Shown here: positions 44,901 through 61,150 of the stretch, in pieces
Position numbering within the stretch: the first letter of the stretch is position 1
Layout: each line of letters starts with the position of its first letter
NCBI GenBank assembly: GCA_945877765.1
Contig: CAMDWQ010000010.1
Span: forward strand, 5,679 to 69,678
Reading direction: 5' to 3'
Source of the DNA: Candidatus Omnitrophota bacterium
GTDB lineage: Bacteria > Omnitrophota > Gorgyraeia > 2-02-FULL-51-18
Length of the DNA stretch: 64,000 bases
Program-made: the position numbers and the translations under genes
The notes under the pieces: generated by a model
Databases searched by the model: none
Seen by the model: the letters and a program-made list of their open reading frames with translations, nothing else
What the model was told of the DNA's origin: nothing

Positions 44901-47900
44901 GAAAGTCTATGACGCCAACAACCTGCTTCTATCGATCATCACTCAAGGAGGTTTGGAATACCGGTTTAATCATTTAAAAGATGAGGCGGGCAATGCCGTG
45001 GAGGAGCAATTTTTGTATTCGGCCAAAACTGAGGATGGAATGACGCTCTTTTATAAAAATGACACCGTGGACAAAATTCAGCTAAAAGACGGGACCGTGA
45101 TTAATGTTTCCGAGGCGGATCAGGATTTGTATCAAAAAGTACTGATTAAGCAAGGCCTCGTGGACCAGGTGATTCATAAGACCGGGGAGCTTGCCGTTTA
45201 TATCCGTAATAATCGCGGGGATTTGAAAGAAGTCCGTGTCAGTAAAGCTGGGCAGGAGTACCGCTACACGCCCGATGGCCGTCTCGTAAGCCGCACAGAT
45301 GTTGGCGGCGTCACTTATCATTATGGATATATTTTGGATGGGGCTGGAAATATATCCAAGACGCGCGTGGTAAAGCGTACGGCAAAATTAATTGGGGGCG
45401 ATCTGCCAACAGTGGATCCGAATACCGGTGATTTTCTGAGACTGAGTGTTTTGTCTGCCGGGATTGTGGATGGGTGGAACGCAGGTCTATTTGCCAATGA
45501 CGAAGGTGTGGGGCATTTTGATACCAATTTCTGGCGGAATTCGTCGGATCAATGGACAGGCCGTGGGTATGACGTCGCCGTTGTCGATGCCAAAGGCAAA
45601 CTTATTAAGTCCGATCTTTTCGATATCTGGCAGCTTGGGGGCTCAGAAGCCGACCGGATGGCACAGTTTATTGAGCAAGTCCCTGTGGGAAATTATGTCC
45701 TCATGGCGGTCGGTGATGAAGGCGCTCTCAACATGACCGAGCGCGCTTACAAAGCCCTTGAGTCGCTGGGAAGCGCTCAGATACGAAATCTAAAGTTCAG
45801 GGGATCGTGGGGTCTTATTGGTAGAAAAGGTGCCGCTATTGGCACAGCCATCGAAGGTCTCCGAGATAGCCAAAAAGGCTACGTCTCTTTGCAAAATTAT
45901 GATACCGAGTATAGCTATTTTGATAAAAAGGGTGTTCCGATACCCTACGACCAATTCACCGCCGTTATTTCTCAAAATTGGAACAGTAGCTACCAGAGTT
46001 ATGTGGGGGATGCGGGGGAAATTCTTAAGACATCGGTCTATAGTGATGAATATGCTATCGCCTATCACAAAAATTATAATGAGCTCTATCCTGACTCCGG
46101 TTTTATTCAACTTTGGAATGACCGTTACCTTAATCAATTTACAGTCAATGAGTATGCCCAGGGAATCATAGATAAGGTTTCAACTACGGCTACCGCCAAA
46201 TATGTCTATTACGATAGCCGCTACCCGTTTAATTATGTCCACCCGCTTTTTGCAGTCGCTCTAAAAAATATTCTGGCGGCCAATGGCTTTCGGGTGATTG
46301 ATGCCAACCAGCTTGCGGAAGTCATGAAATTAGAAGGTTCTCACGCGGTGATTGTCTCGGCGCACGATGTGATGCCGGATACCATCTATGACCCCAATTC
46401 TATTTTTTCTATTTCTTATCGAAAGCTTTCGCGTACTTTTATGGAGAATGGCGGCACGCTCGTGTGGATGGGGGATCTGCCTTTTTATTACACGGGACAC
46501 GCGGACGGCAGTAAGACCATTGTCGGTGAGATCGGAGCGAAGACAGTTTTGGGGGTGATGCCTCTGGCGCGCGGCCTTCGTGCTCCGGTGAGTAGGACCT
46601 ATGTGCAAACTTTTGATGAATGGACGTTTATTAGCGGATGGATTCACGGAAATGGCGCGACGATTCAAAACGGGACTCTCCGACTGACTTCCCAATTGCC
46701 ATCAATAGTAGGCTCGGCAAGCGACCAAAACTTCAAGCCATCAACCGGGCTTTTGCGGTATACGGTTGATTTTAAAAATAATACGCTCAACTCAGGCTTT
46801 GAAACTTATCTAGAATTTCAAAATTTTACCCCTTATCAGACTCTGGGGATTCGCCAGGAAAACGGTGTGTTTAAATTTATAGGAAAGACTCCAGTGACCG
46901 GCGGATCGTCAGTGATTACCAATTTGGGCCAAGCTGCTTATGTTGCCGGCGTGGAATACACAGTGATTTTTGAAACCGAAAACAATGTCCTTAAAGTATT
47001 TTTATATCAAAAAAATCAGCCACAGCCCGAGGTGCCTACATTTTCAATCGCTAATGTGGACCCAAGCGTTGGGGCGAGTATTGGATTTAATATTCAGCAG
47101 GGTGAGGCGTTGGTCACAAGTCTTAAAAGAGATGAGAGGGAATACGAGATTATTTCTACGCAAGCGCCAAGCATTACTCCCGATTTTAGTTTGAAGGGCG
47201 GCGAGGCGGCGTTGGATACCTCCTTGCTTTATTTCGATACCAATGTCAATTTCCGGACGGTGCGTTGGGACAAGATTCAGGAATCGATTGGCTATTCGCT
47301 TGATAGCGATACGGCCGTGGTGTCCGATTACGATAAAAATGGTGATCTTATTTCCATTGCCAAGGCGGATCGCACGGTGACCACGTATGAAAACCAAAAA
47401 GTGCAGTTGGTGACGGACATCAACGGGTATGTTCTTGTGGAGTACGCTTACGATGCACAGGGTGCTTTGACTTCCATTACCAATGTCGGCCAAAGAAGAG
47501 AGCTCGCCGATCACATTGAGGACGCCAAAGACCGGGCCAATTTTGAGAAGCTATTTCTTTTTGAAGATGTTGCCATTGAGCATAATCTTACCGCTGGAGA
47601 GCCCATTGCTAAAAGTGCTCGCATCAGGTCGTTGGCGCACAGCGCCAATGTTCTCGACGGCGGACCTGAACCAGGAAGGTCATCGATGGGCATTGTTGCC
47701 GATGAGCTCATCAGTGAGCACGCAGAAAAATATCGCCAAGAGAATCCAAAGACGCTCGAGGGGGAAGTAGGAACAGACCCTTTCTGGATACAGGTTGCCG
47801 ATGGGTACTTGGCATACTCCAGCGCGAGACTGGAAGCGCTAAAAGTTTTACGTAGTACTCAAGATATCAAAGCCAAGAGCAGGGACGCCAAGAAAGAAAA

Positions 47901-50900
47901 GTCCAAGGCTCTTGACCGGGTGCGGGACATTATCCGAGATATCGACAACAGGGAAAATGAATATCACCAGACGGTGCTTCAAGCGATTTTCAATTTCAGC
48001 GCCGCTGTGCTCCAGCAGAAAAAAAATGAAATTGAGGCCGATTATCAAAAGGCATTTGATGCGCTCGCAGTGCAGACGAGCAATTTTGAAAAAGAAATCC
48101 AGAAAGAAGAGTCCAAGCCCGTCATCTCCGATTATTACCGCTCTATCTTAGGTCGCGATGCCACCAGCGCTGAGATTGAATCCTATTATCCGCAAATTGC
48201 ACAAAATGGAAAAATCAACGCCGCGGCTTTGGGCGTCAACTTGCGAAATTCAGCTGAGTTTATCCAAAGAACCAGTCGCGTTGGTAAGATTCGCGGGGAT
48301 GTCGAAGCGGCGCTGGATGAATATGTTTCTGCAGACACAGGCAAAAAAGCTACCCTTCTTGCCTCGCTAGGTCTTACTCCCTCCGAAGTCGTTAACCTCT
48401 CCGCGCAAGACATTCAAAAAATAAAAGATTACCTTCGTTCTCAAGCCCTGCATTTTGGCGAATCCGCTATCGAATCTTTGATGGCGCTGATCAAGTCCAG
48501 GGGGATTTCTCCCAACCGCGACGAATTGGCCGCCAAGCTCATTCTCATTGATATCTTCGCGGGCATCATTCACCCCTATTTGAAAGAAGGGGAGGAAATG
48601 CTCCTGTCGGCTTATTCGCTTCAGAAAGTCGCCGCTTTTTACGGGGTGGAAGCACAGACACTAAATCTTACCTATGAAGACATGCTCGCCATTTTTTCTG
48701 CAGGAACATCCTCTGCACGAGCGATTTTACACACAGAAGGTATTCATTATTCGGTGCTTACCGCGATCACCGCTGACCAAGTGACTATCCTTGAATACAA
48801 CGGTGATTCCCGCACCATGTCCAAGGCCGATTTTCTAAAATCGTGGAAGGGGGTAGCCCTTGTTGAAAAATCTACCGCCGCCCCCGTTCTCACCGGCCCC
48901 CAGAAATCAGCCACCGCACGTGTATTAAATTCAGATGAAGCCCGACAGATCAAGGGTGGATTCTTTATGTTTATCCCTTTTATCTTCACGATGCTTGCGC
49001 ATATAGCCGCGACCATCGGCGCCATCATTGCTAGCATCGGTACGATTATTGCCCAGATTGGCATCATGGTCGGCCAGATCCTACAGGGTTTGGGCGGCCT
49101 TCTATACCAGTTCGCCCAAGGCGTCGGCGCCGTTGTCAAAGGTCTCTGGACCGGCATCAAATTTGTCGGCATGAAAATTTTCACAGGCTTCGCCAAATTT
49201 TTCGGCCCGACCCTCGCCAAAGCCGCCGCCGGTGAGGCACTAAAGGTTACTGTTGGCCAGACCATTCTCAACAATGTCATCCGAATGGGTGTTAGCTACG
49301 TCGTCTCCAAAGGCCTCGACGCGCTGGGCGTGGACCCTATTGTCACGAGCATCATCTCAACGTTTGTGACAGGCGGGATGCACGGAGGATTTACCTCGCA
49401 AGGCTTCAATTTCGGCTTCAGCCTAGCCGACGGCCTCAAAGCAGGTCTCCAGTTAGGCGCCAAAACATTCCTCCAAGCCGCCGGGCTTGACCCCCAGCTT
49501 TCGGGAATCTTATCGATGACGACAGGCCCCTTGGTGAATGGGGTGTGGACGGGGAATGTGGGGGGAGAGTTATTTAAGATTGCGCCGGAGCTTACAACCA
49601 GCTTAGCTCAATACGGGATAGACAAACTCGGAAAATCGCTGGGGTTGGATCCGAGGCTGACAGGATTGATTTCAGCGCCAATCTCATTGGCGATAGGGAA
49701 AAATTTCCAGACTGGGAATATCTTCGGCCAAGATGTCATTAAGGCCGTCCAAGATGGCATTTTCCGAGGAGCTATCGCGTACGGCGTCGACTTTGCCGCC
49801 AATAGAATTACCGACAACAAGCTTCTTCAAGCCTTAAGCTCACGGCTTATCTCTGGAGCCATTGAAGGAACATTCCTTCAAAAAGATCTCTTTGCGGGAG
49901 TCGTTGGCGCCCTAAAGCAATCCGTTGTCGGCATTTTTGGAGCTAACCAAAGCGATGTTCTCGGCAATATTGTAAACTTCTCAACATTGGTGGCACAAAA
50001 TGGTTTTAAGAACGCCGCAGAGCTCTATTTGACCAATATCTTCAACAAACAGAGTATTGAAGCCATCTATCGCTTGGGCGGTATCGCAAGCGCTCTAGCG
50101 TCTCCTAAAACTCAAGTCACTCTCCCCGACGGAAGAGTTGCCTATCAGACAGTCACCTCCTCGGGAGAAGCGATAATCTTTGACGCCATGAACAACCTGC
50201 TCGGCTTTCAGAGAAACGGTCTTTATCAGATAGGAGGGTTTGGTATCACCAGCGCCGGATCCTTTGGGCTTATCAGTGGAAAATCTTTTGGAATGATCGC
50301 CGGCGGCTCATCATTTGAAGCCTCCATCCAAAATGGAAAAGTGACACAAATCACAACCTACACCGACCAAGTCCGCCTGGATATAGATTTGGGTGAAGGA
50401 ACGGATGGCATTCGTTTTGATTCCGACGGAAACCTGACCGATGGAAGGATGACGTTGGATGAGAGGATAGATTTTACGGTAGTCAATGGCACTGTTTACG
50501 GGATTGAGCTAGATAAAGAAAATCCAAATACAACCTCCGTTAACGATGCGTATGCGTTTGCTGAGCGTATTATTAGTGCTGTGCTGGATGGCTCGGGGAG
50601 TTCGAGTTCTGGGTCTAGCGTGATTGACCAATTGCAAAAAGAGCTCATCACTTACTATCTATTTGGTAATGGATTTGAGAATGAAAGAAGGAAAGAAGAT
50701 ACCCTTGATCCGCTTTTGAAGTTTTATACAGATAATCTGGAATTCGATGATCCTAAAGTGATTACTGAGGGTCAAAAAATTGTGGTGGATCTCTATGAAT
50801 TTACCAAAGTCGCCGGAAACGGTTTGGATTGGCTAGGGGATTTCAATCCCGTATTTTTAGTTTTGTTGTTAGGCGTGTTAGGCCTGACCTACGTCGCCGC

Positions 50901-51681
50901 CGATAGAATCATCCAAAAGGTGATCAACAACGAATCTCTGGATTCATCCGCCTCGGACGGAGAAAAATCTTTTTATCAAAAAGTACAAGATTACCTAAGA
51001 AAATTTAGCGAACAGACAGGTCTTGGCAATAATCTCGTACTTGAAACCATCAGACAAATGGAAGCATTGCAAGCCAAAAAAGGAAAGCTAAAAGATGCTA
51101 TCGCATTCGTTCACTCAGGGGCCACAGCCCCCGTTTTAAGTGCCATCGAGCAAATGCAATATGATGTAGAAACAGTGCTTATCTATGAAGGGCCCCACCC
51201 AAACTACACCGCACAATTTACAAATCCAAGCTTAAAGCGTATTATTCATGTCATGGGGTCGAGCCACGGCCTATTAGACAGCTCGCTCGAGGGAGACGCG
51301 CCTGTGCCGTTTTTGGGATGGGCAAACTTTAAAAACCCAGCCAACGTTGATTTTAAAAACATCAATATTGAAATTGAGGGTGCCTGGCACAGCGATTATG
51401 CCTATAACGCAGAGGAATGGGATAAAAAAATCGCTGCTGTTACAGGAAGCACCCCAACCGCGGTTGAGGCTGATCGAAATCGCATCAGAGCACTAAAGGA
51501 AAGAAATAGAAAAGTGAATTTATTCATGAGGGATTTGTATCAGGCGGCCTACAAAGATCAGACAAATCAAGGGCTCTTGGACGATTTTTTTGAAGATCTA
51601 AAAACAAAAGGCGCAGCCAATCTAGAGAGTGGCATCTGGAAAATTGATCCCACAAAATTAAGAGATGTGACCCCCCAATGA
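38962..51681 (+). CDS. Giant secreted multidomain protein (4239 aa) with YD/RHS-type repeats, a triplicated 83-aa module, a FAM3/ILEI-like domain, a DUF4214-like motif, an inactive C39-like peptidase fold, a Gly/Ala-rich hydrophobic region and a C-terminal GxSxG domain
   Basis: Uninterrupted ORF with ribosome-binding site and signal peptide MRRSPYLKIISLALIISFSFSNLLYAADP; many Y.YD..G repeats; the domain evidence is given in the findings. Confidence 0.85.
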   Translation: MRRSPYLKIISLALIISFSFSNLLYAADPRDLLNAAKAGFALEDQRRTGGEAPLNNQSQGYAQGLVDQKNNLADLEQLNFSLTTQNGDILKYAGDKLAQIQRPDGTILQNIVLAADGKIQNADLKLFDGSIQVFQNGQVIGYETPDGTQVFYANSQIQKTISKSGVETLYAYTKDANGKVLETILENSQAKTIYDAQGKLKEVYQKGLSQRMVYQAGILQSITLQDGSQALFQAQTINSQVKVTFKSYVDANGNTYVNDMQYLLKDGSSLKNIIWGSDGKVVNALLESIDGSTYTFTNKVITAIRLPSNWVLSSITWDTQDKLKDGILTDLANNQWTYQAGALVSIKLLDGSILSSITWDAQNKIKTANLIDAQKKEYTFANNQLSQPLNAIAFQLDTQYGLVAGNSTYQFNWAGKNEKWFKANNNTWYFILPDGKVYLWNSVAGKNLTTSTLVVTLNSSYWEDPAFLCDASDRAIVLQLDTQYSLVPGSSTYQFNWAGQNEKWFKANNNTWYYILPTGQLYLWDAKGGKNLTTSTLAATLNSHFWEDPTKVHLAFERAALESTALNLDRQYALIPSSSNYFLNWAGQQEKWFKSSSGTAQYFILSDGSLYLWNQPAGKNLATSTKLATLSADYWANPTLLCRAYDRTVAVVVTSAYTAKIIGITKPQISVSKRTLSASKLNIATLSAAFSFNSILYNTDGSFAQILEKDNTTLNFKNNLLVDAKDAQGKIIHFDFTESAFGNLLGSSLTQSGATSTYDEQGNLSSVKVGDTTIHYSAENKIESVEKADGTRVENIIFDAQGNIHDAKMTAPDGTQRTYQAKKMIREKKADGTETDFVDGKPSVTRMADGRVYVYSPAAIIGNSAAFRSILTQYVSDDGSAVYVNDGIPFKIQTKSGMVLTNLVFALDGTLTDAIGSFTGPDENQMTLTYQGKEVRQIISADGSRLFYENNRLKSMTKPNGEQIIYEYTLDGDGEILKIILKDASGTRIYNPAFGKSSELVDDDLVNQDGGEVDLGRALPAMDLLSYFKAIENTTTHLPESHVGINDPLTISYTYDVALYLLAGASSGGAILDYIISNPEKMINTTYVPSGGMYSDLSTLGGQAGFDRNSVVAGPNAWIGLAALKQYQKTQDVKYLNFAKARAAFIKTLSDPSGGIVMGPAGQWGIPPFSDLKSTENNLSALYLYQALYTATNDAQYLAAADSLWAYVKTLYDPTLHAFSRGEHKGGGEWLKDSANVFATDVLAWMPFERVVNDSFFGADVLARLKEVENMIRAAEKYTGLFTPVGDIQGFSYSPESKDRSVISIEWSAQMANLYLKIARSYKQLGNDVKYRFYGSRYQKLTASLETFVKTDASGVSRAPYAVYQNGKGAYGEFTGHGWATPSPKNQNGDVFSMASIYYQFSRQKTDPLTLANGSILSANYISQADIDKYSGTSLRDQKYFDAVTSLERYENEKFTAVYSKGTLRSIQYENILINNPVIDARGFLVSAEIHTPDGQVYTLKDRKLATLLRANGTLLGYEGDLIVDVTAPNGKKVHYTYTKNAQGYVTGIAVEYNTGNGWIGKPIAEYLFDPANTEEKPIHQTNYHLAGDDYRQGSVGSSTIGSGESEWFGSAQGLDPLDPEARLVFDSSTLEGTGDRNFIDIQAYRYDLEWPDNMLSVQNDSFVFLRAKETNSSTDVHLSPYWMTASGLLLWVPLQNGFDIPLTDQYQNHLISIQPDALVVGRKTFNLRLVFATPMPAAAPWKISIAEMDYFQLKHIEPEDYLQYLNLSQEQMLDVSRKPLKNDAMDLLEGSQIVSNFNHQKEAEKFLIAMDLDANYNYLSGTRVDKSVERYAGGKVASLLKNGSEETYEYDVNGQIQKVINKDAATQAVKTVTYYQYGRIRRVEDASAKALYTYSYQTDSANNEITLVKDEATGELKHYQGSRLTQMDNADGTRTLYFYENTDERISRSQIMSGQSILAKFSYSYEGANTLVTDADGATKVYDANNLLLSIITQGGLEYRFNHLKDEAGNAVEEQFLYSAKTEDGMTLFYKNDTVDKIQLKDGTVINVSEADQDLYQKVLIKQGLVDQVIHKTGELAVYIRNNRGDLKEVRVSKAGQEYRYTPDGRLVSRTDVGGVTYHYGYILDGAGNISKTRVVKRTAKLIGGDLPTVDPNTGDFLRLSVLSAGIVDGWNAGLFANDEGVGHFDTNFWRNSSDQWTGRGYDVAVVDAKGKLIKSDLFDIWQLGGSEADRMAQFIEQVPVGNYVLMAVGDEGALNMTERAYKALESLGSAQIRNLKFRGSWGLIGRKGAAIGTAIEGLRDSQKGYVSLQNYDTEYSYFDKKGVPIPYDQFTAVISQNWNSSYQSYVGDAGEILKTSVYSDEYAIAYHKNYNELYPDSGFIQLWNDRYLNQFTVNEYAQGIIDKVSTTATAKYVYYDSRYPFNYVHPLFAVALKNILAANGFRVIDANQLAEVMKLEGSHAVIVSAHDVMPDTIYDPNSIFSISYRKLSRTFMENGGTLVWMGDLPFYYTGHADGSKTIVGEIGAKTVLGVMPLARGLRAPVSRTYVQTFDEWTFISGWIHGNGATIQNGTLRLTSQLPSIVGSASDQNFKPSTGLLRYTVDFKNNTLNSGFETYLEFQNFTPYQTLGIRQENGVFKFIGKTPVTGGSSVITNLGQAAYVAGVEYTVIFETENNVLKVFLYQKNQPQPEVPTFSIANVDPSVGASIGFNIQQGEALVTSLKRDEREYEIISTQAPSITPDFSLKGGEAALDTSLLYFDTNVNFRTVRWDKIQESIGYSLDSDTAVVSDYDKNGDLISIAKADRTVTTYENQKVQLVTDINGYVLVEYAYDAQGALTSITNVGQRRELADHIEDAKDRANFEKLFLFEDVAIEHNLTAGEPIAKSARIRSLAHSANVLDGGPEPGRSSMGIVADELISEHAEKYRQENPKTLEGEVGTDPFWIQVADGYLAYSSARLEALKVLRSTQDIKAKSRDAKKEKSKALDRVRDIIRDIDNRENEYHQTVLQAIFNFSAAVLQQKKNEIEADYQKAFDALAVQTSNFEKEIQKEESKPVISDYYRSILGRDATSAEIESYYPQIAQNGKINAAALGVNLRNSAEFIQRTSRVGKIRGDVEAALDEYVSADTGKKATLLASLGLTPSEVVNLSAQDIQKIKDYLRSQALHFGESAIESLMALIKSRGISPNRDELAAKLILIDIFAGIIHPYLKEGEEMLLSAYSLQKVAAFYGVEAQTLNLTYEDMLAIFSAGTSSARAILHTEGIHYSVLTAITADQVTILEYNGDSRTMSKADFLKSWKGVALVEKSTAAPVLTGPQKSATARVLNSDEARQIKGGFFMFIPFIFTMLAHIAATIGAIIASIGTIIAQIGIMVGQILQGLGGLLYQFAQGVGAVVKGLWTGIKFVGMKIFTGFAKFFGPTLAKAAAGEALKVTVGQTILNNVIRMGVSYVVSKGLDALGVDPIVTSIISTFVTGGMHGGFTSQGFNFGFSLADGLKAGLQLGAKTFLQAAGLDPQLSGILSMTTGPLVNGVWTGNVGGELFKIAPELTTSLAQYGIDKLGKSLGLDPRLTGLISAPISLAIGKNFQTGNIFGQDVIKAVQDGIFRGAIAYGVDFAANRITDNKLLQALSSRLISGAIEGTFLQKDLFAGVVGALKQSVVGIFGANQSDVLGNIVNFSTLVAQNGFKNAAELYLTNIFNKQSIEAIYRLGGIASALASPKTQVTLPDGRVAYQTVTSSGEAIIFDAMNNLLGFQRNGLYQIGGFGITSAGSFGLISGKSFGMIAGGSSFEASIQNGKVTQITTYTDQVRLDIDLGEGTDGIRFDSDGNLTDGRMTLDERIDFTVVNGTVYGIELDKENPNTTSVNDAYAFAERIISAVLDGSGSSSSGSSVIDQLQKELITYYLFGNGFENERRKEDTLDPLLKFYTDNLEFDDPKVITEGQKIVVDLYEFTKVAGNGLDWLGDFNPVFLVLLLGVLGLTYVAADRIIQKVINNESLDSSASDGEKSFYQKVQDYLRKFSEQTGLGNNLVLETIRQMEALQAKKGKLKDAIAFVHSGATAPVLSAIEQMQYDVETVLIYEGPHPNYTAQFTNPSLKRIIHVMGSSHGLLDSSLEGDAPVPFLGWANFKNPANVDFKNINIEIEGAWHSDYAYNAEEWDKKIAAVTGSTPTAVEADRNRIRALKERNRKVNLFMRDLYQAAYKDQTNQGLLDDFFEDLKTKGAANLESGIWKIDPTKLRDVTPQ

Positions 51682-52175
51682 AAAATAAAGCTATTTTAAT
51701 ACTCGCAGGATCGCTACTCACTCTAATTTTGCTATTTATTTATTTTACAAACTCAAGAGCGACATATTCCAAGATAGCTGTTCGCTCAATCGATGAAAAT
51801 AAAATTTACGTTGGCGATGAAAAGCCAGGACTAGAATCAGCATCGGATGAGGCTAGTAGCTTTGCTAAGACTGTAGAGGGGCTTAACGAAGGTTGGGATA
51901 ATATTGGAACAGGAGAATCTTATTATAGAGCAGGGCAATATGAGGAGGCTGTAAAAGCTTATAAAAAAGCATACGATGTCGATCCTGGAAACAGGACTCT
52001 CTCAGGCAACAAATTGATCAACGTTTACGAAAAGCTCTCCCGATACGACGAAGCCATCGCCCTAGTAGATGAAATCTTAAAAACCCAACCACTTGTTGAA
52101 TATGGCATAGCGAAGTTCACCGCCATCCGCACTCGCCTCCTCGCCGCCAAAGTCCAATCTGCCAAAGCTGAATGA
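51678..52175 (+). CDS. Small membrane-anchored TPR-like protein, translationally coupled to the giant gene
   Basis: 165 aa; ATGA stop/start overlap; N-terminal transmembrane segment; helical repeats YYRAGQYEEAVKAYKKAYDVDP. Confidence 0.6.
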   Translation: MKNKAILILAGSLLTLILLFIYFTNSRATYSKIAVRSIDENKIYVGDEKPGLESASDEASSFAKTVEGLNEGWDNIGTGESYYRAGQYEEAVKAYKKAYDVDPGNRTLSGNKLINVYEKLSRYDEAIALVDEILKTQPLVEYGIAKFTAIRTRLLAAKVQSAKAE

Positions 52176-52355: not shown

Positions 52356-54437
52356 TTGACTGAAGAAATAGTTCCCATCGTATCACCCTCCGAAAGAAAA
52401 ACCCGCGCCACTAGTTACGAGTTGTCAATTAAGACTTTCTTAGAGGATCTCCAATTTAAAGATGTGGATGGGGCAAGAGATTCATTTTTAATAGGCGAAA
52501 ATCAGGTTGATGTTTGCGGAGGTCATGAGGATACACTCCTGATCATAGAATGCACGATGAAGCAAGCATTGGGGAAAAAATTGCTAATTGCCAAGATTGC
52601 GGAGTTAAGAGGAAAAAGGGATGTATTCCAAAAAGGCTTTAGAAAAAGCGAGAAGTATGGGCATTACAAAAATTTTAAATATATTCTTTCGGTGCGTAAT
52701 ATTCCGGTGCGTCGAGAAGATATTGATTATGCGAACAAAGACGAATGCAGAATTTATATATGGGATGATAACTGTATTGATTATTACAAGGATCTATATT
52801 CCAAAATCGGCGAATATGCCAAGTATGAACTTTTGGGTGAAATAGGGATTAGGCCGGCAAGTGGAAACACTGTTAGTATCCCAGCGGCTTGCACAAATAT
52901 TGCTGGATCTGATGTCTATTTATTTTTTGCAGACCCACGAACGTTACTCGAAGTTTCATGTGTCGCAAGACGTGAAAAGGGGCAAGAACGATACTATCAA
53001 AGGATCATAAACAAAAAAAAGCTTAAACAAATTGCTTCATATGTTGAGACTGGGAATATCTTACCCAATAACATCATAATAGGCATTAGTGAGCAATCCC
53101 GAAAATATTTAAAATTTACACCATGGCAAACCAAGCTTGATTACAAGCAACAATTATTGCAGTATGGTGTTAAATATGGAATTTTAGAATTTCCGAAAGA
53201 TTATCGTAGTTGCTGGATAATAGATGGACAGCATCGTCTCTACTCTTTTATAAACACAAAAAAACCTATTTATTTGCCTGTTGTTGCTTTTCATGATCTT
53301 AGCATGGAGAGACAATGCAAATTATTTTTAGACATCAATAAAAACCAGAAGCCTGTTCCTCCAGATTTAGTTTGGGATCTTAACGGTGACATGATTCCTT
53401 CCGAACCTGACGGCATTATTTCAAGCGTTGTCAAAAGTCTTAACGAAATGGAGCCGTTAGCTAGAAGAATCCACATTCCATCAAAGGGAATGCAAACATC
53501 TCACGGCTATTTAAAAATGTCGGGAATTTGTTTGAGTTTAAAAAGAACAAAATTAGGGACCCATGTTACGTATAGCAAGACTGAAAATCCATTTTGGAAT
53601 AAAAACCCCGATGAGACGGTTCGCCAACTCTCCAAAGCACTTTCAATATACTTTATTGTCATAAAAGATATTCTCAGAAAGGATTGGGAAAGGGGGGATA
53701 AGGGCTTGGCTCTTTCTAACGGGTCCAACTCGATATTAATTAGAATTTTTGAGAGAATTGTTTCCAACTGTGTGCTTAAAAAGAACGCTGTCAAAGCATC
53801 GGATTATGAAAAATATTTAAAGCCTCTTGGTAAATATTTAAACGAAAAAACGGATGAAGATTATAAAAAGATTCGTTTGATGGCCTCCAGCGAGGGCGGA
53901 AAAGATAACCTTTTGAGGGATTTTGTTTTATACATTCGAAAAGAAACAAATGACTGGCAATTTGGTGGAAATATAGATGCATCGGGATCCTCTGAAATAA
54001 AGTCTCTTGAAAAAAGATTTAAGGATTTGTTTGAATTAAAATTTAAAGAAGATAGGGCAGAGGATGTTCTTTCAAAGGATCTTTATGGCAAGGCATCAAA
54101 ATATCTTTCAACGCACGGCCTATCAAAACGTGATATTTATCGACAATTAACTTTTGGTGAGTGTGTTCGTGTTTTAAGGGAGAAAAAGGACATATTTTAT
54201 CCTAGTTTTGTTGGGTCTAATTGTGAATTTCATGCCGAAATTGATTTTGAGTCAGCATTAGGGCATATCACTAGGCACAGGAACAGCCAACTTTCACACG
54301 ATATTGGTGCGGCTGCTCGGGATACGGACGATCCGTTATTTAAAATTTACATTGATAAAATAAATAAATGTATAAATGGTATTTTGGGGGAAAGCGAAAA
54401 CGATGAGGAGGCAGAGGACGATAGTGATGAATTATAA
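52356..54437 (+). CDS. DGQHR-domain protein (DndB-like / ParB-nuclease superfamily) with an extra N-terminal nuclease-like region and long C-terminal region; TTG start
   Basis: Literal motif CWIIDGQHRLYSF at nt 53212-53250; ribosome-binding site GAGGA 6 nt upstream; acidic C-terminal tail. Confidence 0.7.
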   Translation: MTEEIVPIVSPSERKTRATSYELSIKTFLEDLQFKDVDGARDSFLIGENQVDVCGGHEDTLLIIECTMKQALGKKLLIAKIAELRGKRDVFQKGFRKSEKYGHYKNFKYILSVRNIPVRREDIDYANKDECRIYIWDDNCIDYYKDLYSKIGEYAKYELLGEIGIRPASGNTVSIPAACTNIAGSDVYLFFADPRTLLEVSCVARREKGQERYYQRIINKKKLKQIASYVETGNILPNNIIIGISEQSRKYLKFTPWQTKLDYKQQLLQYGVKYGILEFPKDYRSCWIIDGQHRLYSFINTKKPIYLPVVAFHDLSMERQCKLFLDINKNQKPVPPDLVWDLNGDMIPSEPDGIISSVVKSLNEMEPLARRIHIPSKGMQTSHGYLKMSGICLSLKRTKLGTHVTYSKTENPFWNKNPDETVRQLSKALSIYFIVIKDILRKDWERGDKGLALSNGSNSILIRIFERIVSNCVLKKNAVKASDYEKYLKPLGKYLNEKTDEDYKKIRLMASSEGGKDNLLRDFVLYIRKETNDWQFGGNIDASGSSEIKSLEKRFKDLFELKFKEDRAEDVLSKDLYGKASKYLSTHGLSKRDIYRQLTFGECVRVLREKKDIFYPSFVGSNCEFHAEIDFESALGHITRHRNSQLSHDIGAAARDTDDPLFKIYIDKINKCINGILGESENDEEAEDDSDEL

Positions 54438-54453
54438 AAGCTGAGAAGAATTT

Positions 54454-55221
54454 TTGCGCTTAAATTTTGATGTATCGGTTGTCAGGGGTTTGAGAAGCGC
54501 CTCCCAAAGAGCGCGAGTTTTAACTGAGGACTGGGTTGATAAGCAAGTTTATTGCCCTAATTGCGGGCTTGTCGATATAGATAAATATCCAAATAATAAT
54601 CCCGCCGCCGATTTTCACTGCTCGAATTGCCATGAAGACTATGAGCTCAAAAGCAAAAACTCTAAAATTGGCACAAGAGTCGTCGACGGAGCCTACAAGA
54701 CATTGATTCAGAAGTTGCGGGGCAGTACCAATCCCAATCTATTTTTGTTAAATTACGATCCGCGAAGTCTTGAAGTTCAAAATTTTTTTGTGATTCCAAA
54801 GCACTTTTTTATTCCTGAAATTATTGAAAAGAGGAAACCGCTTGTACTCACCGCTCGCCGTGCCGGGTGGGTTGGTTGTAACATTCTTCTGCATGGCATC
54901 CCGCAAACGGGGAAAATTTATTTTGTAAAAAATCGTATTGTTGAGTCGAAATCAAAGGTACTTTCCTGTTGGAAAAAAACACTTTTTTTGAGAGAAGAAA
55001 AAGAGCTTGTCGCCAAAGGCTGGCTTTTGGATGTGATGCGCTGTGTCGAGCAGCTTAGCCAAAGTTTTTCACTTGATGAAGTTTATTCTTTCGCGGGAGA
55101 GCTCGGGATCAAACACCCTGGGAATCGACACATCAAGGATAAAATCCGTCAACAGTTGCAGGTTCTGCGTGAGAGAGGCTACCTCGAGTTTATCGGGCGA
55201 GGCCGTTACCGGCGCCCTTGA
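54454..55221 (+). CDS. DpnI-family methyl-directed (Gm6ATC) type IIM restriction endonuclease
   Basis: 255 aa; strong similarity as recalled to S. pneumoniae DpnI (QRARVLTEDWV..YCPNCG...ADFHCSNCHEDYELKSK...ARRAGWVGCNI...HIKDKIRQQLQVLRE...GRGRYR). Confidence 0.7.
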   Translation: MRLNFDVSVVRGLRSASQRARVLTEDWVDKQVYCPNCGLVDIDKYPNNNPAADFHCSNCHEDYELKSKNSKIGTRVVDGAYKTLIQKLRGSTNPNLFLLNYDPRSLEVQNFFVIPKHFFIPEIIEKRKPLVLTARRAGWVGCNILLHGIPQTGKIYFVKNRIVESKSKVLSCWKKTLFLREEKELVAKGWLLDVMRCVEQLSQSFSLDEVYSFAGELGIKHPGNRHIKDKIRQQLQVLRERGYLEFIGRGRYRRP

Positions 55222-55885: not shown

Positions 55886-56131
55886 TTGAATATGAAGGTA
55901 TTGGTGCTGGATGAGAAGAAGAACCATAGTTATTTTCTGACCTTCCCGAAAGAGATGAGTCAAAAGAATATTAAAGACATGCTAGAGGTCGACGATCACC
56001 GGTTAGCAACCTTTCTTCTCGCGAGGAAAGCCACTGGAAAAATTACTGTCCCTCCAAAAGCTCGAAAGAAAGCAAAGCTTGTGGCTAACTTTACCCTTGC
56101 CCAAGGTTATCGAATCGAACGGTTGGCTTAA
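55886..56131 (+). CDS. Hypothetical protein
   Basis: 81 aa ORF with a G-rich ribosome-binding site; no family recognised. Confidence 0.4.
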   Translation: MNMKVLVLDEKKNHSYFLTFPKEMSQKNIKDMLEVDDHRLATFLLARKATGKITVPPKARKKAKLVANFTLAQGYRIERLA

Positions 56132-56257
56132 ATGAGATCCGGTAATAATTCCTTGCCAGTGTTCTTTTAAATTCTTAAAATATCCCTTGGAATAAAAGAA
56201 TGCCCTGTTTTTTAAACAAGTGACTAAAACTTCTTGATGAATAATGATGGAGCTGCT

Positions 56258-56419
56258 AATGATTGACCTGCAGAGTCTTGTTGAAGCTATCAAAAAATTA
56301 AATGAAAATGAACAATACAGCCAGGGAGTCATCATCAAGCTCAATAAGAAAACTGCCTCCATCAAGCTTTCCGATGGACATGTCTGGAACGTATCTCCCG
56401 GGTTGTTAGAAAAAGCGTG
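56258..56419 (+). CDS. Hypothetical small protein (53 aa), stop overlapping the next gene's start (GTGA)
   Basis: MIDLQSLVEAIKKLNENEQYSQGVIIKLNKKTASIKLSDGHVWNVSPGLLEKA; its coupling to the next gene suggests a real gene. Confidence 0.35.
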
Positions 56420-57916
56420 ACCCCTCTTATCAGTCAACTGGATCGTTGTTTTAACTGCGGGGCTCGTCCGCGCAACATTTGCCCGGCAATGGACAAGGGG
56501 ATTTGCCCGTCTTGCTGCGGGTCTATGCGGGGATCTTCGATTGCCTGTGCCTCCGGCTGCGCTTATTTTCCATTTGCAGTGCCCGGATATGATCTGTGGC
56601 TTAAGACAGACAGCGCGCTTGCTCGAAAGATGCTTTCACGCATTAAAGAATGTTTTGGACAAAATCATTTTGAGAATTGGATGCATCGTATGTCTTTTGA
56701 AGACGATTCACTAGAGCATATGATGCAGACCGCGGCTGCCTCCGCGGCCTATAACATTCTTTTTATTGAACGATCTGCCAAAGGACTTAGCCCTGCCCGC
56801 GAATGGAAGGAAGAAGGCTGGCCTGGGCTGTCCAATGACGAGCGCCAGATGATGGAGTTCCGTCTGAGCTCCCGCGCCACAGTCATCGAGGTCCAAAGAG
56901 TCCTCGATCACCAGGCGATGGAATGCGTGGACGTACTCGATCCCGAAAGAGGAAGCTTTATTGTGCTGGATCGTAGCACGGCCTCTCAAGTAGTCAGATA
57001 CACCCGACTTTTGGCGTGGCTGACCCACTATCGCTATTTTAGCCGTATTGAAAACAACGGCGTTGAGATCATGGACAATATTTTTGACGATTTTTTAATG
57101 GAAACAAAAAAGCGATTGATGAAAGAAACGGTAAAAAGTCCCACCATAACCCAAAAGGAATGTCTCTCCCAAAACTTTGGTTTTTTCTGCGGCCTAGCCC
57201 AAAAGATGGCCAAAAAACGCAGTCTTATGATGTTAAGAAAAATGGATCTCTATGATTGCAAGGCCGTCTACCGGCTTTTAGTTCCCACGGAGGAGATCCT
57301 ACGGGTTTTGGAAAAAGAACCTGACTTTAAGAAAGAAAACGGACCGTCTTTTGACCAAAAACCAATTCCGGGGGCGCAATATTATTCCTGGCTACGTCGA
57401 GGCCGGTCCAAGGCTATTGAAAAAAAGATGAACAGCGCTTTTCATTCTGATGACGAACCATTTGGGGTGGGCATCCTGGGGTTCGTTGTCCTTTGTCCCG
57501 ACCGCATGATTATTGGGTCGTTTTCGAAGCTGAAATATAGATTCGCTAAAAAGATAGCCAAACAATATTTCAAAGGCATGATTTTATTGCAAGGAGAAAA
57601 AATCGTGGATTTGGCCAAGCAGATGGCTGAAAAAAAAGAGCCATTGGAGGCTGAGCACCAGGACAGGAAGCAATTGGAGAGTATGCTTGCCAGCCAATCT
57701 TATGAGCGAACCTATAAAAAATTTCCTGATGAGCCGATCCCCATGCTTGGCGGAAAAACGCCACGTGAGGCATCCCGTGATCCCCTCATGCATGCCAGTC
57801 TCGTCGAGCTTATGAAAATCCACATCAAAGGCATCGACAAGCAAAAAAAGGAAAAAGGGGTTGAGTTTAGTCTCAATGCGCTACTGGATGAATTAAATCT
57901 TCCCGAGCTTAAGTGA
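56417..57916 (+). CDS. Cys-rich (zinc-ribbon) protein with a C-terminal DUF2384-like (Xre/MbcA/ParS antitoxin-type) domain
   Basis: N-terminus CFNCG...CPSCCG...CASGC; C-terminus PIPMLGGKTPREASRDPLMHASLVELMKIHIKG. Confidence 0.45.
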   Translation: MTPLISQLDRCFNCGARPRNICPAMDKGICPSCCGSMRGSSIACASGCAYFPFAVPGYDLWLKTDSALARKMLSRIKECFGQNHFENWMHRMSFEDDSLEHMMQTAAASAAYNILFIERSAKGLSPAREWKEEGWPGLSNDERQMMEFRLSSRATVIEVQRVLDHQAMECVDVLDPERGSFIVLDRSTASQVVRYTRLLAWLTHYRYFSRIENNGVEIMDNIFDDFLMETKKRLMKETVKSPTITQKECLSQNFGFFCGLAQKMAKKRSLMMLRKMDLYDCKAVYRLLVPTEEILRVLEKEPDFKKENGPSFDQKPIPGAQYYSWLRRGRSKAIEKKMNSAFHSDDEPFGVGILGFVVLCPDRMIIGSFSKLKYRFAKKIAKQYFKGMILLQGEKIVDLAKQMAEKKEPLEAEHQDRKQLESMLASQSYERTYKKFPDEPIPMLGGKTPREASRDPLMHASLVELMKIHIKGIDKQKKEKGVEFSLNALLDELNLPELK

Positions 57917-58008: not shown

Positions 58009-58275
58009 ATGGAACATCTTGAAATTACAATGCTCTCATCCAAAGGTCAGATAGTGTTGCCCCAGACGATTCGGCTCAAGCTTCATCTGACCCAAGGTGA
58101 GAAGTTTATCGTTCTGGGTGAGAAAGACACCGTTATCCTAAAAAAGATCGAGCGCCCCGCTCTTGAAAGAGCCAAGAAATTGGTTAAAGAATCAAGGGCC
58201 TGGGCCAAGAAGGCGGGACTCACCCTGTCTGATGTCAGCGATGCTATCCGTAAGGTAAGAGCTGAATCAAAGTGA
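58009..58275 (+). CDS. AbrB/MazE/SpoVT-type antitoxin
   Basis: 88 aa; SSKGQIVLPQTIR swapped-hairpin motif; overlaps the PIN gene. Confidence 0.7.
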   Translation: MEHLEITMLSSKGQIVLPQTIRLKLHLTQGEKFIVLGEKDTVILKKIERPALERAKKLVKESRAWAKKAGLTLSDVSDAIRKVRAESK

Positions 58276-58676
58276 GGGTCGTTTTAGACACCAACGTCCT
58301 TATCTCGGGAATCTATTTTGGTGGAATTCCAGGCCGCATTGTTGATGCCTGGCTTGACGCCAAATTTACCGCGTGCATAACGCCGGACATCTATGACGAG
58401 TATCTTAAAGTCATTGATAGATTCAACAAAAAAGGCGCGAGTCCGATCATTGAACGTGATTGGCCAACCCTTCTTCCGGAGATATGTTATATGATCTCCG
58501 ACCAAAAATTAGCCCATCCTATCTCACGGGATACCAGTGATGATAAATTCATCGCCTGCGCCATGGGCGCAAAAGCTGGCCACCTTGTCACCGGCGACTT
58601 GGATTTAAAAACAATCCCCCCGCAGCCAGGCTTTAAGATCGTCTCCGTGGAAGAGTTTTGGAATATTTTAAAGTAG
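58272..58676 (+). CDS. PIN-domain toxin (VapC-like)
   Basis: 134 aa; MRVVLDTNVLIS...; acidic residues at the conserved positions. Confidence 0.75.
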   Translation: MRVVLDTNVLISGIYFGGIPGRIVDAWLDAKFTACITPDIYDEYLKVIDRFNKKGASPIIERDWPTLLPEICYMISDQKLAHPISRDTSDDKFIACAMGAKAGHLVTGDLDLKTIPPQPGFKIVSVEEFWNILK

Positions 58677-58774: not shown

Positions 58775-58900
58775 GAGTCTGGAGTCTGGGGACACGTACC
58801 TAATTCACCCTAACTTACTTTGGTTTTGGCCCAGGTTTGATTTTCCTCAATAAACTCGTCAGAGTCCAGAGGTCCGACTGACCAGGTATTGTTGTAGTGC
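58775..58900 (-). mobile_element. Decayed remnant of a second REP-associated tyrosine transposase (RAYT) element (left inverted repeat plus the 3' end of the transposase gene, with an internal deletion)
   Basis: GAGTCTGGGGACACGTACCTAATTCACCCTAACTTACTTTGGTTTTGGCCCAGGTTT...CTCAATAAACTCGTCAGAG matches 60140-60260. Confidence 0.7.
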
Positions 58901-58955: not shown

Positions 58956-59183
58956 ATGCTACATCTAAATATCACATTCCCTGAGGATTTGAAAGAGGCT
59001 TTGGATCAAGAGGTTAAGCGGGAGCATACTCAGCGTAGTACGCTAATCCAAAAAGCGGTCTGGGTCTACCTGGAAACAAAAAAGCAAAAAGACCTCAGAT
59101 CTAATCAAGTCCTCAAAAGTAAAATGCCATCAAGTCCGCTCTGTAGACAAGCAGAGGCTTTGAAGTTGCATTTGGGGTTTTAG
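58956..59183 (+). CDS. Putative RHH/CopG-family DNA-binding protein (orphan antitoxin-like)
   Basis: 75 aa; LKEALDQEVKREHTQRSTLIQKAVWVYLE. Confidence 0.45.
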   Translation: MLHLNITFPEDLKEALDQEVKREHTQRSTLIQKAVWVYLETKKQKDLRSNQVLKSKMPSSPLCRQAEALKLHLGF

Positions 59184-60108: not shown

Positions 60109-60142
60109 GGAAGAATTGTCACACTCCGATAGTGCCCGAGTC

Positions 60143-60938
60143 TGGGGACACGTACCTAATTCACCCTAACTTACTTTGGTTTTGGCCCAGGTTTAATTTT
60201 TCTAAGCATTCTTCCAGTTTTATCTTCCAGCATCTCAATAAACTCGTCAGAGCCCAGAGGTTTGCCGCTGGAGAGATGCCCCTGGATTAGGTTTATTTCT
60301 TTGTTGCTTGCCGAGGCTAGGTAATCTGACCAATCTTGGATTTCTTCGGTAAGAAAAAAGTCACTAAGCAGTTCATCTTTAAGCTTTAGGACTCTTGTTC
60401 TGGCGCTAGACCAGGGGTAATCTTGAGCCTTGATTACGATAGCTGCTTTGACAGGGTTTGTCTCAACATAGCGAACCGCAGCATAAAGATGCTGTTGATC
60501 TAGAACATAGCTTAAGAATCGTCCCTGCCACAAATACCCACGCCATCTCTCCCGAAAATTAATCATTCGTGTATATCGTCTATGGGTTTGACCGAAAGCT
60601 GATCGGAGCGACTCTTCTTTCTTGGGAACGGCTACAAAATGGACGTGATTATCCATAAGGCAGTAGGACCAGATAACAACTCCAAAGCGTTCACATTGGG
60701 CTTTTAAGATCTCCAGGTAAGCTTTTTTATCGCTGTCAGCAAAGAAGACCCGTTGTCTTCGATTCCCGCGCTGGATGATGTGATGCGGTAGTCCCGGAAC
60801 TATGAGTCGTGCGATTCTAGGCATGTAAGTGTCCCTCCACCATACAGGACGACACAGAACCTCACTTTCGTCATAAATAAATCGGAAATTTTAGAACTAC
60901 TTACAACAAGTAACGTGGCGGTGTGGGAATTAGGTACG
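60143..60938 (-). mobile_element. RAYT / IS200-like HUH element, bounded by 22-bp inverted repeats TCTGGGGACACGTACCTAATTC
   Basis: Left inverted repeat at 60143-60164, right inverted repeat (reverse complement) at 60917-60938; CAGATGC repeats follow at 60939-60960. Confidence 0.75.
60171..60824 (-). CDS. REP-associated tyrosine transposase (Y1 HUH, COG1943/IS200-like)
   Basis: 217 aa; HUH motif LMDNHVHFV; catalytic Tyr region RYVETNPVKA; C-terminal WQGRF...DYPWSS. Confidence 0.8.
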   Translation of the reverse strand: MPRIARLIVPGLPHHIIQRGNRRQRVFFADSDKKAYLEILKAQCERFGVVIWSYCLMDNHVHFVAVPKKEESLRSAFGQTHRRYTRMINFRERWRGYLWQGRFLSYVLDQQHLYAAVRYVETNPVKAAIVIKAQDYPWSSARTRVLKLKDELLSDFFLTEEIQDWSDYLASASNKEINLIQGHLSSGKPLGSDEFIEMLEDKTGRMLRKIKPGPKPK

Positions 60939-61150
60939 TGTCCCCAGATGCGTGCAGATGCCCAGATGCGAAAAAGAAAAGGGCTCAAGCGACCCCTTTG
61001 TTGTTTGTTGGATTATAGGTATATACCCATAGAGCATTGAATTTTTTAGCGCTTAAAAAGTTCAACTCGCCCGTTAATCGAAAAAAAATCTAAATAAAGT
61101 TTTGACGAAAAGCAGGCCCTCTGTCGTCAAGTAAGTAAGGGGAGGGTATC

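Follow-up and report, generated by a model that had tools for sequence, protein, structure and literature searches.

A large uncharacterised protein family of uncultured bacteria whose C-terminal tail may remotely resemble DUF2384 antitoxins

We investigated a 499-amino-acid protein encoded at positions 56417-57916 (+) of a 64,000-nucleotide stretch of a Candidatus Omnitrophota genome (assembly GCA_945877765.1, contig CAMDWQ010000010.1, positions 5,679 to 69,678; hereafter the window, meaning the whole stretch). Judged by its sequence, this protein is a member of a large uncharacterised family in uncultured bacteria. Our best explanation, which we hold to be about evenly poised between right and wrong, is that it is a stand-alone member of this family with a remotely DUF2384-like interaction tail, and that it is not half of a toxin-antitoxin (TA) pair. 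That the protein forms a TA system is not demonstrable. An earlier note, drawn from the letters of the window, had described the same gene as an N-terminal zinc-ribbon joined to a DUF2384-like antitoxin domain, and had proposed a fused or atypical TA system or a regulator of the neighbouring defence genes.

The open reading frame (ORF) was borne out as described, conserved from end to end. It opens with GTG and its coordinates include the stop codon; homolog starts lie 5-9 residues ahead of the first Cys, in keeping with the GTG start. Full-length homologs with E values down to 1e-154 and beyond place the gene beyond chance. A word-indexed search returned 27 clusters, all of ~500 amino acids, with 31-49% identity across 95-99% of the length; none carries a Pfam domain, and every one is labelled 'hypothetical'. 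An exhaustive profile search extended the family to 2,969 representatives at E<=1e-3, with 390 at <=1e-30. Pfam, NCBIfam, PADLOC and PHROGs gave no meaningful match to the 499-amino-acid protein at E<=1 (the anti-phage defence models of PADLOC gave no match at all at that level), and neither a protein search nor a family-profile search found a significant match among PDB sequences. No transmembrane segment was found in the protein, which points to a soluble product.

The family varies in length and comes mainly from Omnitrophota, Planctomycetia and Eisenbacteria. Many members are 670-730 amino acids long and carry an additional C-terminal extension of ~200 amino acids, itself without a Pfam match; one distant relative of 1,003 amino acids, P0167, has DUF1186 and a SEC-C zinc motif at its end. 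Genome matches came nearly all from metagenome-assembled genomes (MAGs), chiefly of Candidatus Omnitrophota, with some from Planctomycetia, Eisenbacteria, Spirochaetes, Chthoniobacterales and others. The family was not found on 72,556 plasmids, in 50,697 phage records or on IMG/VR contigs. Two MAGs gave two family loci each. Two copies in Eisenbacteria MAGs (L032:5373-6068 and L033:322-1017) cover only residues 11-243 and adjoin a minus-strand ORF family, a probable insertion sequence (IS) ORF that also occurs in L012 and L027; these two copies are probably IS-disrupted.

The case for a stand-alone unit comes from genomic context. We clustered the ORFs of 28 loci all against all (26 genome loci, locus L005 and the window), and no neighbour family occurred in more than 4 loci. 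The most recurrent neighbours were an AbiEi_4-like protein (4 loci), a Schlafen/AlbA_2-HATPase protein (3 loci) and probable IS ORFs; as system components these were rejected, being too sparse to define a system. Among the 77 immediate neighbours at 25 loci, a Pfam census found PFK, seryl-tRNA synthetase, QueH and solute-binding proteins together with RhuM, AbiEii, BrnT, a DDE transposase and a Schlafen-type ATPase, and neither RES nor ART was among the recurrent families. The earlier note's remark that no obvious RES or ART partner is present therefore holds, both beside the window gene (Pfam, PADLOC) and across related loci. Individual loci are diverse, pairing the gene with a Fic-helix-turn-helix (HTH) gene and VapBC in an Omnitrophota genome, with SecB-HTH and AbiEi genes, or with an AlbA_2 ATPase and a 1,813-amino-acid helicase, and long-form genes with Ser/Thr kinases, a glycosyltransferase or a sulfatase; several family loci sit in TA- or defence-rich islands. 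Since the neighbours differ everywhere and the protein is conserved, these results argue for a stand-alone unit and leave both a two-gene TA system and a dedicated regulator of neighbours unsupported. The suggestion of an atypical TA system found nothing to build on, with no conserved neighbour family over the 26 genome loci and no RES or ART gene in the 77-neighbour census.

The other half of our reading concerns the C-terminal module, residues 439-499 (57731..57913, +), delimited by conservation, by the PF09722 matches of relatives and by a model of the isolated tail (pLDDT, the predicted local distance difference test, 82.9). A loop (PMLGGKTP) is followed by three helices, a short one at 449-454, a long one at 459-480 and a terminal one at 487-492. 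The string PIPMLGGKTPREASRDPLMHASLVELMKIHIKG is present at the C-terminus and is the family's best-conserved block; T448, P449, R450, A452, R459, L462 and K467 are each conserved in at least 90% of sequences. The family consensus for the loop reads PAL[DN]GxTPR, for which the 'LGG' of the window protein is atypical. The literal pattern quoted in the earlier note, 'LGG..P...........V...L...G', matches neither the window protein nor MbcA, a bona fide DUF2384 antitoxin, so the resemblance is an approximate one.

What likeness there is to DUF2384 (Pfam PF09722, gathering score 24.5 bits) reaches us through relatives. The tails of two distant members matched PF09722 below threshold (P0167 at E 0.0065 and 16.9 bits, P0158 at E 0.017). 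Across 112 diverse tail segments PF09722 was the top Pfam family, with 12 matches, all sub-threshold (best E 3.6e-4), the next family having 4; across 88 full-length members it was the sole recurrent Pfam family (8 of 88, again sub-threshold), any other reaching at most 2. Those relatives' matches for which scores were shown lie between 15.5 and 16.9 bits, all under the cutoff. The matches share one register, with the family's W at profile position ~14-15 and its 'TP' at ~26-27; they are restricted to relatives with W at that position, where the window protein has F436. By structure, a Foldseek search of the isolated tail against 350,542 PDB chains gave 2 matches, one of which is the ParS antitoxin (6D0H_D).

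The strongest competing account is that this motif arose by chance or convergence: an ordinary helical hairpin whose 'LxGxTP' loop mimics DUF2384, in a lineage-restricted factor unrelated to TA systems, for example a zinc-dependent nucleic-acid-binding protein. We regard this as somewhat unlikely. In its favour, the PF09722 matches reach no further than the first half of the model (positions 5-37 of 51), and no toxin partner turned up at any related locus; the long forms, moreover, sit beside housekeeping-type genes. It does not readily explain why PF09722 alone recurs in two censuses, why the W and TP positions fall in the same register, or why ParS should be one of only two chains drawn from so many. 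A control also speaks against it. A profile of genuine MbcA (sequence verified against 6FKG_C) likewise misses ParS and the RES-Xre antitoxin in the PDB; true DUF2384 members thus fail the same sequence tests, and the negative profile tests for DUF2384 have little power.

Several results nevertheless weigh against our reading, most of them in favour of a chance motif. When the hidden Markov model (HMM) search for PF09722 that the earlier note had called for was run, neither the window protein nor any of its 25 closest homologs matched at E<=1, the outcome that the note itself had named as refuting its proposal. No NCBIfam DUF2384 antitoxin model matched the window protein; each matched 1 family member, at E 0.04-0.09. 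An hhalign comparison of the tail profile with an MbcA-subfamily alignment was in register and non-significant (probability 0.24%, E 0.25), and the family tail profile found no MbcA, ParS, Xre or other DUF2384 structure among PDB sequences. The ParS match is itself weak (39 columns, root-mean-square deviation (RMSD) 2.4 A, 20% identity, template-modelling (TM) score 0.42 on the target, E 9.5, probability 0.12), and since Foldseek takes amino-acid similarity into account as well, it does not count as evidence separate from the sequence motif. Covariation between tail and core, measured by mutual information with average product correction, is weak and confounded or dominated by subfamily signal; its best pairs all join residue 464 to the alpha/beta domain described below, and the best of these ranks 58th. 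From another side, the TA- and defence-rich islands, the two loci in each of two MAGs and the two copies that look IS-disrupted fit an accessory or conflict role better than neutral housekeeping. Finally, the mechanism that we derive from the architecture, set out below, is one that we hold with low confidence.

Taken together, the evidence is suggestive of a tail that is remotely DUF2384-like, whether by true distant homology or through a shared structural motif, and the window protein cannot be classed as a PF09722 member. The DUF2384-like tail of the earlier note thus survives as a faint likeness seen via relatives and fails as a domain assignment for the window protein, which lacks both a PF09722 and an NCBIfam DUF2384 match. 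Nor did any Pfam or NCBIfam HTH family match the window protein, as an Xre-type antitoxin would lead one to expect; an HTH_17 match in 1 of 88 relatives (E 0.02) was dismissed as noise.

Upstream of the tail lies a core with no detectable relative in sequence or fold searches. An AlphaFold2 model of the full-length protein, built with a 26-sequence alignment, has a mean pLDDT of 86.6 and a predicted TM score of 0.67. It places a helical domain at residues 55-150 (56579..56866, +), for which no family or fold match was found; a beta-rich, small-barrel-like domain of six strands at residues 153-218 (56873..57070, +); two long helices at residues 220-275 (57074..57241, +) that join the two beta-containing domains; and an alpha/beta domain at residues 277-398 (57245..57610, +) whose elements run beta-alpha-beta-beta...alpha-beta. 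A helix at 399-407, a low-confidence loop at 409-415 and a long helix at 411-438 then lead into the tail (57611..57730, +), as seen in the full-length and isolated-tail models. Among 88 diverse members, conservation is nearly complete at W130, D141 and E142 in the helical domain, E158, D172, D185, R194, P206 and R210 in the beta-rich domain, and D277, Y285, W325, E394 and D398 in the alpha/beta domain. This set is strikingly acidic, which suggests a metal-dependent active site or a site for a basic ligand.

Fold searches of the full-length model found nothing significant in the PDB (best E 0.03, TM <0.15) and nothing at E<=1e-3 in BFVD (best E 0.005). The only Foldseek matches with a probability of ~0.9 were short SH3/OB-type barrels (eIF5A, 1bkb/2eif; 64-65 columns, RMSD ~3 A, E 0.3). 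The Foldseek output carries no query coordinates, and from the model we infer that these matches would fall on residues 153-218. Low-probability matches to ferredoxin-like domains (DyP/EfeB, PII-like SbtB and the Lrp/AsnC protein PH0061; E 0.1-0.4) may, if placed by the same reasoning on residues 277-398, indicate that the predicted alpha/beta domain is possibly ferredoxin-like. Matches to TBP-like proteins, CENP-N and DyP were rejected as noise (TM <0.2).

The N-terminal Cys module, residues 11-48 (56447..56560, +), is modelled as a beta-hairpin plus helix and holds eight Cys (C11, C14, C22, C30, C33, C34, C44 and C48). These form two interleaved four-Cys sites, in the order A-A-B-A-A-B-B-B along the chain and with the spacing C-x2-C-x7-C-x7-C-x2-C-C-x9-C-x3-C. 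Site B (C22/C34/C44/C48) is universal; site A (C11/C14/C30/C33) is subfamily-specific and gained or lost as a set. The pattern is bimodal, with all 8 Cys in 30 sequences and exactly the four of site B, with none of site A, in 50. Such inheritance indicates that the two quartets act as independent units. The multi-Cys cluster of the earlier note is therefore real, and 'zinc-ribbon' would be roughly the right class, if imprecise for two interleaved quartets. Matches to zf-HIT were weak (2 of 26 members at E 0.02; the DDX59 zf-HIT at E 0.5), and no HMM reached its cutoff. Two Cys quartets with interleaving ligands are shared with zf-HIT (PF04438) and MYND, as in cross-brace double-zinc modules. 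In contrast to these, all ligands here are Cys with no His, the spacing differs from both the HIT and the MYND consensus, and most of the wider family keeps one site only; the sequence would also be compatible with an Fe-S cluster.

If the preferred reading of a stand-alone protein with an interaction tail is right, these parts would combine as follows. The Cys module would bind zinc and anchor the protein to nucleic acid or to another protein, and the acidic core would house a site for ligand binding or catalysis. Docking would fall to the basic, DUF2384-like tail (T448-P449-R450, R459, K467). DUF2384 domains plug into toxin active sites, as established for MbcA, ParS and Xre, and by analogy the tail might engage a partner encoded at an unlinked locus, or else the core of the same protein. 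The protein would then work as one self-contained unit, with no need of a neighbouring gene.

Docking onto the protein's own core is the essence of a second alternative, a single-chain, fused TA protein or defence sensor in which the acidic core is a growth-arresting enzyme that the tail restrains in cis until a trigger, phage infection for instance, sets it free. The near-invariant acidic constellation of the core suits this idea, as does the fact that the most conserved block is a remotely antitoxin-like tail, and the weak covariation between residue 464 and the alpha/beta domain runs in the same direction. So do the double loci and IS-disrupted-looking copies, and the surroundings of many loci, the window included, which feature DGQHR-DpnI, MazE-PIN, Fic, VapBC, AbiEi/AbiEii, BrnT and Schlafen-type ATPases. 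Against it, the N-terminal ~400 amino acids show no fold likeness to RES, ART, MbcT or any toxin family among the top 50 Foldseek matches in the PDB and BFVD, and no RES or ART Pfam match appeared at E<=1 in 26 close or 88 diverse members; compared by eye, the conserved E158...R194...S209 does not seem to follow the R-S-E order. PADLOC was silent, the family was not found on plasmids, phages or viral contigs, and some members occupy housekeeping contexts. The fused system of the earlier note is accordingly unsupported by sequence and by fold, and we judge this alternative unlikely. Less likely again would be its boldest form, a new class of single-chain, self-neutralised effector in which a diverged DUF2384-type plug closes, in cis, the acidic active site of a previously unseen enzyme fold, and the interleaved double-zinc module provides the anchor or the trigger.

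A third alternative is an orphan, trans-acting antitoxin or immunity protein whose tail neutralises an unlinked or incoming NAD+-targeting toxin of RES, MbcT or ParT type, for example from competitors or phages. The tail signal itself would agree with this, the one known role of DUF2384 being to partner RES-type toxins (PMC3482391), and a giant RHS-type, polymorphic-toxin-like gene lies 5 kb upstream in the window. That gene has its own overlapping downstream ORF, however, and the DGQHR-DpnI pair separates it from the 499-amino-acid gene; the neighbour census met no RES or ART gene near any family member examined, a conserved core of 500-700 amino acids is needless for simple neutralisation, and the tail signal is sub-threshold. 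We consider this very unlikely. Highly improbable, and largely refuted by the context analysis, is a role in the transcriptional control of the flanking genes (those of the DGQHR-DpnI pair before it and of the MazE-PIN pair after it), as the earlier note had also proposed for the neighbouring defence genes: the gene does sit between two defence or TA modules and its Cys module could bind DNA, but neighbours differ at each of 26+ related loci while the protein is kept at full length, even beside housekeeping genes, the low GC content of the DGQHR-DpnI pair suggests separate acquisition, and MazE-type antitoxins autoregulate.

Closer inspection of the gene's flanks yielded no partner either. Two small ORFs, both gene-finder calls, occupy the 1.2-kb gap upstream. 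The first (55886-56131, +) comes with a strong Shine-Dalgarno sequence, GAGGGGGG. The second (56244-56420, +; 58 amino acids) overlaps the GTG start of the 499-amino-acid gene (GTGA). They had been described as two tiny coupled ORFs; as ORFs they exist, the second overlapping the start, and they are conserved at no homolog locus, neither having a counterpart near any of 37 such loci. The 58-amino-acid ORF has no relative among 5.8 billion clusters. Unconserved near homologs, and in the second case a database orphan, the two were rejected as partners. Between 55.1 and 58.3 kb, nothing in Rfam, promoter or terminator scans rose above chance; a sigma-70-like site at 56153-56181 is no exception, though it could start an independent transcript.

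SEC-C motifs recur around the family. Small SEC-C proteins stand directly beside family members at L022:9602-10201 and L036:5425-5943; as a conserved partner they were rejected, since the two examples share only a 14-residue motif. The idea that the long-form extension persists as a split-off downstream gene at short-form loci was also rejected, the HMM match to a SEC-C gene having vanished when P0167 was left out. The recurrence may be a coincidence in SEC-C-rich phyla.

The window gene stands among several other modules. Downstream, at 58009-58676 (+), a MazE/AbrB-type antitoxin (88 amino acids) and a PIN_3 toxin (134 amino acids) overlap by 4 nucleotides; the unrelated AbrB-PIN pair of the earlier note is thereby confirmed, and its two genes make up a full type II TA system of the conventional kind, separate from the 499-amino-acid gene. 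Upstream, 52356-55221 (+) encodes a 693-amino-acid DGQHR/DndB/DpdB-like protein, whose first ~175 amino acids carry no annotation, followed by a DpnI-type methyl-directed restriction enzyme. The GC content of this pair is 0.36-0.40, compared with ~0.45 for the 499-amino-acid gene and ~0.46 for the surroundings, which suggests that the pair was acquired separately and recently. Further upstream, within 38962-52175 (+), a 4,239-amino-acid ORF holds an ILEI domain, RHS repeats and Peptidase_C39, with ~900 unannotated amino acids at its C-terminus; a 165-amino-acid tetratricopeptide-repeat (TPR) ORF (51678-52175) overlaps its stop. From its domains the long ORF looks like a giant polymorphic-toxin-type protein, and the TPR ORF is a possible immunity or accessory gene.

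Beyond the MazE-PIN pair, a Y1 (IS200-like) transposase gene (60171-60824, -) lies within 30-nucleotide inverted repeats (60133-60162 / 60927-60956), and a ~92-nucleotide remnant of the end of this element, 96-97% identical, is found at 58782-58873. Element and remnant together flank the intervening genes with direct repeats. These genes are a 75-amino-acid ribbon-helix-helix (CopG/HicB-like) ORF (58956-59183, +), which has no visible toxin partner, and, next to it, an MscS-type channel gene.

Set against known systems, the family has its closest counterparts in DUF2384 antitoxins for the tail only, in cross-brace zinc modules for the N-terminus only and, conceptually, in single-chain fused TA proteins. 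The tail keeps the element order of the Xre/MbcA/ParS antitoxins of the RES-Xre, MbcTA and ParST systems: an aromatic residue (W in the matching relatives, F436 here), an LxGx[T/S]P loop, a short helix, a turn and a long amphipathic helix. The differences are considerable. The protein is four to seven times longer than those antitoxins; it lacks an Xre-type HTH, an adjacent RES, MbcT or ParT toxin and an operon partner; no member attains the Pfam cutoff; the family has its own strict T-P-R...R...K signature and an extra terminal helix (LDELGLxELK); and many relatives run ~200 amino acids past the tail.

CapRel(SJ46) is a single-chain fused toxin-antitoxin defence protein with a recognisable toxSAS toxin domain. 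Our protein shares with it a single polypeptide, an antitoxin-like C-terminal region, the absence of a partner gene and, in several genomes, a place in defence or TA islands; unlike CapRel(SJ46), its N-terminal 400 amino acids match no toxin family or fold, and its family was not found on phages or plasmids. To SEC-C/DUF1186 proteins the links are the C-terminal end of P0167 and the small SEC-C proteins that adjoin family members at two unrelated loci, whereas the window protein itself has neither domain. The description that suits the protein best is a new architecture, with an unclassified core carrying a remote antitoxin-type module; none of the results so far establishes a new kind of system.

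What the finding means depends on the tail. We found nothing in the literature on DUF2384 outside small antitoxins. If the tail is truly a diverged DUF2384, the domain would not be confined to small HTH antitoxins paired with NAD+-targeting toxins and would have a further use, for docking, in a family of large stand-alone proteins that spans ~3,000 sequence clusters, widening the search space for antitoxin-like modules and single-chain conflict systems. Were the core in addition plugged in cis, this would be the first RES/MbcT/ParT antitoxin domain to act inside one polypeptide, and with a partner that is not of the NAD type. If the resemblance is coincidental, the window gene would encode an ordinary hypothetical protein located by chance in a defence island. 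Independently of the tail, the family is a sizeable blind spot: its multidomain fold is predicted with confidence, a set of its acidic residues is strictly conserved, and Pfam, NCBIfam, the PDB and BFVD contain no relative. Concentrated in the poorly studied phyla Omnitrophota, Planctomycetota and Eisenbacteria, it merits at least a DUF entry and a structure.

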